Below, piece after piece: positions 59,229 to 61,691 of a stretch of DNA of 64,000 nucleotides. The notes under the pieces are model-generated. The model ran no database searches, had not been told where the DNA came from, and was given only the letters and a program-made list of their open reading frames with translations. Location: NCBI GenBank assembly GCA_036392215.1, contig DASVYJ010000027.1:15637-79636 (forward strand). The letters run 5' to 3'. Every line of letters begins with the position of its first letter. The first letter of the stretch is position 1. Source of the stretch: Candidatus Limnocylindrales bacterium. Lineage in GTDB: Bacteria > Chloroflexota > Limnocylindria > Limnocylindrales > CSP1-4. The position numbers were made by a program, and so were the translations under genes.

Positions 59229-61691
59229 ATGTCGATCGGGGAGCCGATGCTCCTGCCGCCGGACGTGATGATCGTCCCCGTCGAGTCGCTCCCGGCCGAC
59301 GTCCGGACGAGGCTCGACCACAAGCCGGGCGACCATGCCCTCACCCGGCCGCTGACACGGACCGCCTCCACGATCGTGGATGCGAACACCGCCCGGCTCC
59401 TCGGATCGTTCCAGACGCCGACGCGGATCGTCGACGCGATCATCGCCTTCGCGGCCGAGCACGATCTCGATCCCCGGGAGACGCTCGACCGCTCCTATCC
59501 GGTCCTCCGCGAGCTCCTCGCCGGCGGGCTGCTCGTGCCCGCGGGGTCAGAGCTCGCCCGCCCCATCGCCGAGTCCGCCCTGCCCGACGGCACCGCCGTG
59601 GGGCGCTTCCGCGTGGACCGGACGGTGCACCTCATCATCGACACCCAGCTCTGCCTGGCGCACGGTGACGGGCCCGACGAGACCGAGGTCGCCCTCAAGG
59701 TCGCCCGGCCCGGTCACGAAGTCCAGTTGCGGGCGGCGCTCGCCCACGAGGCGTCGATGCTGCGGCGCCTCGACGGCCTCTCGACGCCGCGGCTCATCGA
59801 GCTCGGCGAAGCGGACGGCCGGCCCTTCCTGGCCATGACCTGGCAGCGGGGGAGCAGTGCGGACCTCGTCGCCGCCGAGCTGCGGGGCCTTCCTCCGGCC
59901 GACGGCCGGCCCGCCCTGGTCAGGCTGTGTCGGCGCATCCTCGAGGCCTACGCTGCGATCCACGGTCGGGGGGTCCTCCACGGCGACGTCCACCCCAACA
60001 ACGTCCTGGTCGGCCCGGACGGCGAGGTGACGGTCATCGACCTGGGGCTGGCCGCCGGCGAAGGGGAACGCGGCACGCCGCGCGGCGGCGTGGACTTCTT
60101 CATGGAGCCCGAGTCGGCGAGTGCCCAGGCGGCCGGCCGTCGCACGGCCCCGCTCACCGGCGCCGGCGAGCAATACAGCCTCGCCGCCCTGCTCTACCTG
60201 CTGCTGGCCGGCGGCCATACTCATGCCTTCTCCCTGGAGCCGGCGGCGATGCGCCGACAGCTGCTCGAGGAGCCGCCCTTGCCGTTCGCCCGGCACGGGG
60301 TGACGGGCCTGGAGCGGATCGAGGCGGTGCTGGGCCGTGCCCTGGCGAAGGATCCAGCGGAGCGATTCCCCGACGTGGCCGCCCTGGGCGCGGCGTTCGA
60401 GGCGGCGGCCGCGCGCGACGTGGTCGCGGACGGCGAGACGGGGAGAGCTCGGGGAGCGCCGGGCGCGCTCGCCACGGCGGACGCGGCGAGCGGGGCGCCG
60501 CGGCGGAGCCGCGGCGAGGCCGACCGGCTGCTGGACGAGACACTCGAGCGGCTGGGCCCGGACGGCCCGCTCCTGACCGCGGAGCTCGAAGCGCCACGGG
60601 CCTCTGTCAATCTCGGCGCAGCGGGCATCGCCTACGGCCTCCTGCGCGTCGCCATGGCCCGCGACGACGGCGCGCTGCTCGGCCTGGCGGACCTCTGGTC
60701 CATGAAGGCCCTGGCCTCGCTGGGGACCGAGGAGGCCTTCGTCAACGCCGCTCTCGACATCACCCCAGCCACCTTCGGCAGGACCGGCCTCCACCACAGC
60801 CCGACCGGCGTCTACCTGACCGAGGCGCTCATCGCCGGCGCCCGCTGGGACCCCGCCAGCCAGGCCGCCGCCGTCGACGCGTTCCTCCGGGCGACCGAGG
60901 AACCGGGACCCGAGCGGGACATCTCGTTCGGCCGCAGCGGCATCCTCCTGGCCGCCGCCATGGCGCTCGAGGCGCTTCCGACCGACTCGCCGCGAGGGGT
61001 CGCGGTGCGCGAGCGCGGCGACGCCATCGCCGCGGGCCTCCAAGCTGAGCTCGATCTCTGCGAGCCGCTCGATTCCCGGCCCCGCGCCGATACCCGAGCG
61101 GACGAACGGTTCGTCGGCGTGGCCCACGGCTGGGCCGGGTTCCTGTACGCCCAGCTGCGCTGGGCCCAGGCGACCGCGGCCCCTGTCGCCGAGGGGGTCG
61201 CCGCCCGCCTCGCCGAGCTGCGCTCGCTGGCCAGGCCGCTCGGGCGCGGCCTCGCCTGGCCTCGGGAGCGCGGCGAGTCAGATGACGGCGCTCTCGTGGG
61301 TACCTGGTGCAACGGGGCTGCCGGCCACCTCGGGCTCTGGCTCCTCGCGTCGCGCCTGGTCGACGGCGGATTCGCCCGCACCGCCGAGGCGGCCGCGTGG
61401 ACCGCGCTCGAGGCCTCGCCGACGCCCGGGGACCTCTGCTGCGGGCTCGCCGGTCGAGCCTACGCCCTGCTCGGCCTCCACCGGGCCAGCGGGGAGCGGA
61501 TCTGGCTCGCCCGGGCCCGAGCCCTGGCCGACCAGGCCGCGTCGATCGTCCGCGAGCAGGCGCTCCGCGCGGACAGCCTCTACAAGGGCACCGTCGGCGT
61601 CGCCGTCCTCGCCGCCGATCTCAGCAGGCCGGCCGAGGCCGCCATGCCCTTCTTCGACCGCGAGCCGTCGAGCGTCGCTCTCAGGGACTGA
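59229..61691 (+). CDS. Ser/Thr protein kinase – LanC-like cyclase fusion protein (lanthipeptide-synthetase-like class III/IV architecture without a recognisable lyase domain)
   Basis: Kinase: VALKVARPG (beta3 Lys), HGDVHPNNVLV (catalytic loop), VIDLG (the DFG-equivalent). LanC-like: GAAGIAYGLL, HGWAGFLYA, WCNGAAGH, LCCGLAGRAYALL. The region N-terminal to the kinase is only about 120 aa. Confidence 0.8.
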   Translation: MSIGEPMLLPPDVMIVPVESLPADVRTRLDHKPGDHALTRPLTRTASTIVDANTARLLGSFQTPTRIVDAIIAFAAEHDLDPRETLDRSYPVLRELLAGGLLVPAGSELARPIAESALPDGTAVGRFRVDRTVHLIIDTQLCLAHGDGPDETEVALKVARPGHEVQLRAALAHEASMLRRLDGLSTPRLIELGEADGRPFLAMTWQRGSSADLVAAELRGLPPADGRPALVRLCRRILEAYAAIHGRGVLHGDVHPNNVLVGPDGEVTVIDLGLAAGEGERGTPRGGVDFFMEPESASAQAAGRRTAPLTGAGEQYSLAALLYLLLAGGHTHAFSLEPAAMRRQLLEEPPLPFARHGVTGLERIEAVLGRALAKDPAERFPDVAALGAAFEAAAARDVVADGETGRARGAPGALATADAASGAPRRSRGEADRLLDETLERLGPDGPLLTAELEAPRASVNLGAAGIAYGLLRVAMARDDGALLGLADLWSMKALASLGTEEAFVNAALDITPATFGRTGLHHSPTGVYLTEALIAGARWDPASQAAAVDAFLRATEEPGPERDISFGRSGILLAAAMALEALPTDSPRGVAVRERGDAIAAGLQAELDLCEPLDSRPRADTRADERFVGVAHGWAGFLYAQLRWAQATAAPVAEGVAARLAELRSLARPLGRGLAWPRERGESDDGALVGTWCNGAAGHLGLWLLASRLVDGGFARTAEAAAWTALEASPTPGDLCCGLAGRAYALLGLHRASGERIWLARARALADQAASIVREQALRADSLYKGTVGVAVLAADLSRPAEAAMPFFDREPSSVALRD

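Follow-up and report, generated by a model that had tools for sequence, protein, structure and literature searches.

Lanthipeptide synthetases are assigned to classes by their domain architecture. Class IV enzymes (LanL, such as VenL and SgbL) unite an OspF/SpvC-like lyase, a Hanks-type kinase and a C-terminal LanC cyclase with a Cys-Cys-His zinc triad in one chain, dehydrate by phosphorylation and subsequent elimination, and are paired with a helical N-terminal leader. The cyclase of class III LanKC enzymes lacks zinc ligands. Class V systems (LxmK-LxmY and CaoK-CaoY) are built from a stand-alone APH-type kinase, LanK, and a stand-alone HopA1-type lyase, LanY, and their clusters contain no LanC (PMC9486802). 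Here, we analyze a window of 64,000 nucleotides from a metagenome-assembled genome (MAG) of a Candidatus Limnocylindrales bacterium (Chloroflexota; contig DASVYJ010000027.1), in which positions 57605-61691 hold a gene for a Cys-rich precursor, a gene for a putative phospho-Ser/Thr lyase and a gene for a kinase–LanC fusion protein, below called the kinase–cyclase. We interpret these three genes as a lanthipeptide-type cassette, that is, one for a peptide that is ribosomally synthesized and then modified post-translationally (RiPP), which combines class IV features with a class V-type lyase and RiPP recognition elements (RREs), and give this interpretation a probability of about 0.7. The layout of the genes, all on one strand with gaps of 22 and 4 nt, supports it. 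A cassette of this kind fits none of the present classes.

The kinase–cyclase gene (59229..61691, plus strand) starts 4 nt past the stop codon of the lyase gene, in a window with a G+C content of ~73-75%, and encodes 820 amino acids. Its product has 100% identity with an NCBI MAG protein recorded as 'lanthionine synthetase LanC family protein [Candidatus Limnocylindrales bacterium]'. The protein has more than 400 matches; nearly all of the best 120 are full length (~800 residues, 99% coverage), and conservation in the first 120 residues equals that in the catalytic domains. Pfam places Pkinase at residues 151-329 and LANC_like at residues 527-809, the latter covering profile positions 61-348 of 350. 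The best NCBIfam match is the LanL model NF038150, which spans the kinase and cyclase parts (residues 124-771 on profile positions 188-805 of 851) with 171.6 bits against an equivalog cut-off of 650; residues 1-123, where the LanL lyase is located, are not matched. The LanKC model NF038151 reaches 88.2 bits (cut-off 575) and aligns with the kinase part alone, and the APH family PF01636 matches a stretch of 29 residues with 23.5 bits. The LanM model TIGR03897 scores 44.6 bits against a cut-off of 304 and covers only the cyclase part, and Pfam does not find the LanM dehydratase domain DUF4135.

The Hanks-type Ser/Thr kinase domain (59601..60428, approximately residues 125-400) was delimited by the Pkinase match and the LanL-model alignment, and its nearest solved structures by sequence are StkP, PknE and PknB (E 1e-15 to 1e-10). 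Its key residues are K157 in the ALK motif (59691-59699), E174, H251-G-D253-x-x-x-x-N258 in the HGDVHPNN motif (59979-60002), and D271-L-G273 in the DLG motif (60039-60047); the coordinates of these motifs were checked. In an alignment of 31 diverse homologues, from which we read the conservation of the whole protein, K157, E174, H251-G-D253, N258, D271 and G273 are invariant. Together with AHGWAG, WCNGAAG and LCCGLAG of the cyclase, these three make up the six motifs that were checked, and all motifs quoted in the original prediction from the sequence are present where it placed them. It had pointed out DLG in place of DFG. The substitution is present but minor: the triplet is D-F-G in most homologues and D-Y-G in some, with the Asp and Gly constant, and is thus subject to ordinary variation.

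The LanC-type cyclase domain is full length (60534..61664, approximately residues 436-812), as delimited by LANC_like and by alignment with LanCL1, LanCL2 and GCR2, its nearest solved structures by sequence. It contains the motifs AHGWAG (61122-61139, with H633 at 61125-61127), WCNGAAG (61305-61325, with C694 at 61308-61310 in a zinc-ligand position) and LCCGLAG (61434-61454, with C737-C738 at 61437-61442). H633, W693-C694-N-G and C737-C738-G are invariant among the homologues. The alignment pairs AHGWAG with AHGLAG, WCNG with WCHG and, exactly, LCCG with LCHG, so that the second Cys of the CC pair takes the place of the His zinc ligand. By sequence, the predicted zinc-ligand positions are Cys694, Cys737 and Cys738, a Cys-Cys-Cys triad. 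Since the pattern is invariant, it is a trait of the family and not a product of chance or a sequencing error. The CC pair had been taken for a partial or variant ligand set; the pair is real, but the set is not partial, as the same triad is known from ProcM-type ('CCG', type IIa) LanM enzymes, which have CCG in place of CHG. In this respect, the cyclase differs from the Cys-Cys-His cyclase of LanL and from the LanKC cyclase without zinc ligands, and resembles that of LanM, which in turn has a dehydratase domain that is not found here. The CCG triad of ProcM-type LanM is described as giving the cyclase higher reactivity, with many scattered precursors as its substrates (PMC11251773). By analogy, a more reactive cyclase would suit the hypervariable, multi-Cys cores described below.

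The N-terminal domain of the kinase–cyclase (59229..59543, residues 1-105) occupies the place of the LanL lyase. We predicted the structure of residues 1-135 with AlphaFold2 from 24 homologues (predicted local distance difference test score, pLDDT, of 90.7). The model consists of β-strands followed by three α-helices, which form a winged-helix fold with a three-stranded sheet, like that of known leader-binding domains. In a fold comparison, the model scored 10.4 with TigE, 9.6 with TbiB1 in complex with its leader, 9.4 with PqqD, 9.1 with TfuB1 and 8.3 with NisB, and MccB, ThcOx, MadB, MibB, the RRE of PbtF, TglI and LynD follow further down the list. The model thus presents the N-terminus as a complete PqqD-like RRE, neither a lyase nor a remnant of one. 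Sequence searches with the domain did not detect an RRE and returned a single weak match, to DUF7782. The original prediction had argued that the polypeptide contains no lyase domain, with an N-terminus too short to accommodate one. The absence of the domain is borne out by both the LanL alignment and the model, and structure prediction yields an RRE where a complete lyase might have folded; however, the N-terminus is not merely short but has the fold of a complete module of another kind.

The system as a whole does have a putative lyase. The gene directly upstream (58010..59224, plus strand) encodes a protein of 404 amino acids with three parts: an N-terminal domain (approximately residues 1-100, 58010-58309), a helical middle part situated between the N-terminal and catalytic domains, and a catalytic α/β domain (approximately residues 198-355, 58601-59074). 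Neither Pfam, including PF17914, nor NCBIfam recognizes the protein, all 622 of its 622 homologues are unnamed or 'hypothetical', and profiles of the full-length protein and of the catalytic domain gave only noise against the sequences of the PDB. A few members of the family have sub-threshold matches to Pfam HopA1 and RamC_N (E ~0.005-0.011). Structure comparison gave scores of 15.3 with HopA1 (4rsw), 15.2 with LxmY, the lyase of the lexapeptide dehydratase LxmKY (9dk1_B; 21% identity), 13.7, 13.1 and 11.1 with the lyase domains of CurKC, ThurKC and SalKC, respectively, and 9.0 with the phosphothreonine lyase SpvC; the next entry, at 7.5, is unrelated. The protein is, according to its predicted fold, a stand-alone HopA1/LanY-type lyase, and its phospho-Ser/Thr lyase activity is presumed by homology.

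Four residues of the catalytic domain, K228 (58691-58693), K259 (58784-58786), R269 (58814-58816) and Y276 (58835-58837), are invariant in the lyase family and are spaced by 31, 10 and 7 residues. The residues of CaoY validated by mutagenesis, R187, K219, R229 and Y236, are spaced by 32, 10 and 7, and their SpvC counterparts are K104, K136, R148 and Y158 (PMC9486802). Mapped by spacing and secondary structure, K259 would be the catalytic base and K228 the carbonyl activator, a role held by Lys in SpvC and LanL and by Arg in CaoY. An invariant Tyr230 stands where SpvC has its catalytic acid, His106. An exhaustive search with a profile of the lyase alignment found 1,574 clusters (50% identity) at E up to 0.001, and 1,106 of them at E up to 1e-30. 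The best 150 representatives are all stand-alone proteins of 294-474 residues, so the separation of the lyase from the kinase–cyclase is genuine and not the result of a frameshift.

The order of strands and helices in the N-terminal domain of the lyase matches that of the kinase–cyclase RRE, and hhalign aligned the profiles of the two domains over 87 columns with E 4.6e-4 and a probability of 33%. Furthermore, the genes of the lyase (58010-58020, MSIGD) and the kinase–cyclase (59229-59239, MSIGE) start with the same 11 nt, ATGTCGATCGG. Together, the shared fold order, the profile match and the common gene start make it likely, but less certain than for the kinase–cyclase, that the lyase carries a second RRE-like domain. 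The identical gene starts and the paralogous-looking RRE-type folds suggest an old duplication of a leader-binding module. PqqD-like RREs are known from TbiB1, TfuB1, PqqD and the leader-binding domain of NisB; in the present system, a kinase–cyclase carries one and a lyase probably a second, whereas no core enzyme of class II-V lanthipeptide clusters has an identifiable RRE according to the ThurKC structure paper (PMC10604976).

The precursor gene (57605..57988, plus strand) ends 22 nt before the lyase gene, carries the Shine-Dalgarno sequence GGAGG 9 nt before its ATG, and encodes 127 amino acids with eight Cys residues. The peptide, which matches no Pfam or NCBIfam model, can be divided into an N-terminal recognition motif, MEFEARRLRVQLP (residues 1-13, 57605-57643), a Cys/Thr-rich core (residues 14-92, 57644-57880), and an amphipathic helical tail that includes LPLLREQLEGQLKEV (residues 93-127, 57881-57985). 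We scanned one genome per species (~185,000 species genomes) for relatives of the kinase–cyclase and took 80 loci that contain them. Equivalent open reading frames (ORFs) of 85-260 codons lie directly upstream of the lyase gene, in two copies at some loci. They share the N-terminal motif M-x-F-x-x-[K/R]-x-L-x-[V/I]-x-[L/V/I], the Phe of which is invariant in 45 of 45 non-redundant sequences, and end in Cys-free tails (median 50 residues; 62% E/L/K/R/Q/A) that carry the motif L-x-x-L-[R/K]-x-Q-L-x-x-x-L. The cores in between are hypervariable, with 12% Cys and 17% Ser+Thr. Judged by sequence, conserved flanks around a variable core are a layout typical of RiPP precursors. The suggestion that the adjacent Cys-rich peptide is the likely substrate gains weight: it is encoded by a real ORF with a Shine-Dalgarno sequence, and its homologues accompany the cassette across phyla. 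The class IV leader is N-terminal and helical; the precursors described here are long and have a short strand-like motif at the N-terminus and a helix at the C-terminus.

Many cores contain tandem repeats, such as CTDCTTQQFSICGTSP repeated five times in locus L080, DCATQCTNEPT repeated three times in L060, and CTPSPP repeats in L024 and L033; in sequence, such precursors look like multi-core or highly iterated substrates. Iterated cores are located at 6005-6796 of L080, 242-502 of L060, 5996-6505 of L029, 5966-6748 of L040 and 6173-6784 of L039, and other types of repeat among them are C-T/S-G/N-C runs, CSAxxCSAxxCS runs and CTGTT repeats, with Cys counts of up to 25-30. In Nonomuraea (GCA_044901665.1; L081 4258-4845, the same locus as L016), two tandem precursor genes have the common core C-T-C-Y-L-T-N-(L/I)-D-Y-C-H-C-S, and the public gene call of the first begins at an internal GTG and loses the N-terminal recognition motif.

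The Cys residues of the cores stand in a fixed register with Ser and Thr. We shuffled the cores 2,000 times for each precursor clade and counted Cys residues with Ser/Thr at position +4. In clade A, with the repeating unit C-[G/P]-[F/W]-G-[S/T], 56% of the Cys residues have this neighbor (124 observed; 33.5 +/- 5.0 after shuffling, maximum 53), and in clade B 52% (152 observed; 53.3 +/- 6.1 after shuffling, maximum 74). The Cys residues of the window precursor are at positions 14, 22, 27, 35, 42, 49, 57 and 69, and five of the eight (14, 22, 27, 35 and 57) have Ser/Thr at +4.

We propose that the N-terminal motif of the precursor (M-x-F-x-x-K/R-x-L-x-V-x-L) docks as a β-strand on the RRE of the kinase–cyclase, and probably also on the similar domain at the N-terminus of the lyase. 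The Hanks-type kinase, with its intact catalytic residues and homology to LanL, would phosphorylate Ser and Thr residues of the core. The separate lyase would then eliminate the phosphate to form dehydroalanine and dehydrobutyrine, probably within a lyase–kinase complex like those of LxmK-LxmY and CaoK-CaoY (PMC12141560; PMC9486802). Finally, the LanC domain, with a zinc ion ligated by three Cys residues, would add the thiols of core Cys residues to the dehydro residues (Dhx) and so close (methyl)lanthionine rings. Because of the strong Cys+4 pattern, many of these are expected to be small tandem Cys(i)-to-Dhx(i+4) rings. The C-terminal amphipathic helix may serve as a second docking element, or it may be a part of the product, perhaps an oligomerizing one.

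Several observations weigh against this proposal. All-against-all clustering of ORFs from 81 loci identified three conserved gene families only, those of the precursor, the lyase and the kinase–cyclase, and thus no conserved protease or exporter accompanies the cassette, unlike in many lanthipeptide clusters; the clustering showed no conserved tailoring enzyme, either. The precursors are long (85-260 residues) and keep a large helical tail. The dominant pattern places Cys N-terminal to Ser/Thr, and most known rings have the reverse order. In the lyase, Tyr replaces the catalytic acid of SpvC and LanL (His106 or His53), and its sequence profiles do not reach HopA1, LxmY or SpvC, so that the predicted fold is the sole link to them. 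We infer the product, the phosphorylation and the zinc from sequence and predicted structure.

Some of these observations would also be accommodated if the same three genes made a non-classical product: a thioether-stapled or metal-binding coiled-coil protein that stays inside the cell, or a protein whose dehydro residues react with a thiol from outside instead of the core Cys. The lack of a conserved protease and exporter in the 81 loci, the protein-sized precursors with a long, conserved, Cys-free helical tail rich in E/L/K/R/Q/A (62%), and the sequence proximity of the cyclase to the glutathione-adding LanCL proteins agree with such a product. However, many RiPP clusters use proteases and exporters encoded elsewhere in the genome. 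Moreover, Cys-richness is universal among the cores and Ser/Thr occurs in the fixed Cys+4 register, which points to intramolecular rings between Cys and dehydro residues. We therefore regard a non-classical product as unlikely, although it is the most serious of the alternatives to the lanthipeptide-type cassette. Even with such a cassette, the lack of a conserved protease and exporter means that the product may be a stapled intracellular protein and not a secreted antibiotic.

The kinase–LanC protein might also act alone and truly without a lyase, either as a housekeeping enzyme of the LanCL kind, adding thiols to proteins, or as a kinase with a LanC domain that only binds something. Its own polypeptide indeed has no lyase domain, and the closest solved relatives of its cyclase by sequence are the eukaryotic LanCL1, LanCL2 and GCR2. 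Nevertheless, the HopA1/LanY-fold lyase gene lies 4 nt upstream in the window, and a homologue of it is the direct upstream neighbor of the kinase–cyclase gene, in the same orientation, at 78 of the 80 loci. One of the two others, L075, begins at a contig end. In the second, L068 from an Acetobacteraceae MAG, an IS630-like transposase (1-1100) replaces the lyase and precursor genes next to an intact kinase–cyclase, and this cassette is probably disrupted. In addition, the system includes an RRE and, with its conserved leader-like motif, a dedicated Cys-rich precursor, and the precursor gene accompanies the family across phyla, which separates it from housekeeping kinase–LanCL proteins with no peptide substrate. 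A lyase-less enzyme is thus highly improbable.

Least credible of all is an ordinary class IV LanL whose apparent split is an artifact of frameshift, misassembly or faulty gene calling: although the window is MAG sequence, the gap between the lyase and kinase–cyclase genes is just 4 nt and LanL is the best NCBIfam match, the same split recurs in 78 loci that span at least nine phyla, some of them in genomes of isolates belonging to Nonomuraea, Micromonospora, Kribbella, Streptomyces, Conexibacter, Cupriavidus and Bradyrhizobium, the top 150 lyase representatives all stand alone, the kinase–cyclase begins with a complete RRE of its own and stays far below the LanL cut-off (171.6 versus 650 bits), and the lyase fold is nearer to HopA1 and LxmY than to the lyase domains of LanKC enzymes.

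Two further candidates were rejected. As summarized in PMC10676316, class VI (He et al. 2023) resembles the lanthipeptide-type cassette of the window in having a kinase-containing synthetase, a reduced or absent lyase domain and small rings, which for the cassette are predicted; it is described there as having a truncated lyase, a truncated cyclase and short substrates, and as confined to Streptococcus. The cassette of the window has instead a full-length cyclase and a separate full lyase, and its hosts belong to soil and freshwater phyla. As far as class VI is presented in that source, identity with it is ruled out by the full-length cyclase, the separate lyase and the lack of a lyase remnant. 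The other candidate was an anti-phage defense system, for which PADLOC gave generic kinase-domain matches only.

Compared with class IV, the cassette shares the fusion of a Hanks-type kinase to a C-terminal LanC with zinc ligands, and the logic of phosphorylation followed by elimination; it differs in that an RRE replaces the in-chain OspF/SpvC-like lyase, that the lyase is separate and of the HopA1 type, and that the LanL score is below the equivalog cut-off. With class V, it shares the stand-alone HopA1-type lyase. However, the kinase is of the Hanks type and fused to a zinc LanC in place of a stand-alone APH-type LanK, a full LANC_like domain is present, and the lyase has an additional RRE-like N-terminal domain and belongs to a family that Pfam PF17914 misses.

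Kinase–cyclase relatives are present in 343 species. Their hosts include Chloroflexota, Acidobacteriota, Nitrospirota, Planctomycetota, Verrucomicrobiota, Gemmatimonadota and Cyanobacteria, as well as Actinomycetota (Solirubrobacterales, Conexibacter, Nonomuraea, Micromonospora, Kribbella, Streptomyces and Paeniglutamicibacter) and Pseudomonadota (Cupriavidus, Bradyrhizobium and Rhodocyclaceae). Nonomuraea wenchangensis CGMCC 4.5598, Micromonospora halophytica DSM 43171, Conexibacter stalactiti KCTC 39840 and Cupriavidus sp. amp6 are among the cultured hosts. A neighbor-joining tree of the kinase–cyclase proteins separates two types of precursor motif cleanly, across host taxonomy: a Nitrospira locus is placed with the Actinomycetota/Chloroflexota type, and a Streptomyces locus and two Chloroflexota loci with the other. 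Since the tree follows the type of precursor motif and not the taxonomy of the hosts, the enzyme and the precursor travel together.

A gene for a SARP/BTAD-family transcriptional regulator (56694..57467, plus strand; Pfam BTAD, E 1.4e-13; start at MPDGER inferred) precedes the precursor gene. A homologue has the same position in six Limnocylindrales-type loci (L001-L005, L069), L007 has one downstream on the opposite strand, and the other loci have none. It is possible that this gene is a pathway regulator conserved in the closest relatives only. Further upstream, a protein at 55283-56545 (plus strand; ORF 55064..56545) has an extremely His-rich N-terminus, HEHHEHGHHEHGHHEHHEHDCHDEHHHHCH, and no match in Pfam or NCBIfam. 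It starts at the end of a preceding large gene (ORF 51636..55286, real start probably at ~52.4 kb) that has a weak match to zinc-dependent phospholipase C. Both genes lack homologues in the 80 related loci. Just upstream of this region, the minus strand encodes a MerR-family regulator (51570..52115) and an MFS transporter (50104..51573), which are not conserved with the cassette. The ORF downstream of the kinase–cyclase gene (61282-63162, plus strand; real start probably at ~61.9 kb) matches nothing in Pfam or NCBIfam and is not conserved beside the cassette; its weak tblastn matches arose where its low-complexity sequence overlaps the end of the kinase–cyclase gene out of frame.

A large separate Ser/Thr kinase gene flanks the cassette in many Acidobacteriota loci and one Planctomycetota locus, upstream in L020, L064 and L073, and downstream in L036, L045, L064 and L034. 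Some of these kinases carry TolB-like repeat regions at their C-termini. An apparent extra domain in kinase–cyclase matches of ~1,060 residues from Acidobacteriota was dismissed, as the translation contains a stop codon followed by a separate Ser/Thr kinase gene.

The original prediction had called the architecture unusual and uncharacterized. In agreement with this, full-text literature searches, which covered few subscription journals, found no description of a kinase–LanC enzyme that bears an RRE and has a stand-alone HopA1-type lyase as its partner; given that coverage, a prior description cannot be excluded. The chemistry would follow the known logic of kinase, lyase and cyclase, and it is by the architecture-based convention of the field that the cassette possibly represents a new class. 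It merges parts of classes IV and V and adds RREs, which have been reported absent from the core enzymes of classes II-V (PMC10604976).

The cassette is common, with relatives of the kinase–cyclase in 343 of ~185,000 species genomes and ~1,100-1,600 clusters at 50% identity in the lyase family, and current mining rules are blind to it. No Pfam or NCBIfam model covers the lyase or the precursor, and the kinase–cyclase is annotated merely as 'LanC family protein' or 'serine/threonine kinase'. Lyase mining has been based on PF17914 (PMC9486802), and a search seeded in this way would miss the lyase. A pipeline that takes any Pkinase plus LANC_like combination for class III/IV and seeks precursors of 30-120 residues (PMC7268733) would put the enzyme in the wrong class and often overlook the precursor.

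Taken together, the data allow a more far-reaching but tentative view, to which we give somewhat less than even odds. The cassette may represent an undescribed, class-level lanthionine synthetase architecture that is RRE-guided and split between two proteins, one combining an RRE, a Hanks kinase and a Zn(Cys3) LanC, the other an RRE-like domain and a HopA1 lyase. Such an enzyme set would install small Cys(i)-to-Dhx(i+4) thioether rings, in tandem, in protein-sized precursors of 85-260 residues with a short N-terminal leader and a coiled-coil-like C-terminal tail, and the product may be a stapled intracellular protein. The cassette would have spread horizontally through soil and freshwater phyla without known kinase-type lanthipeptides, among them Acidobacteriota, Chloroflexota, Nitrospirota, Planctomycetota, Gemmatimonadota and Verrucomicrobiota. 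The C-x-x-x-S/T register predicts a specific ring pattern for these products, and several hosts of the cassette are cultured.

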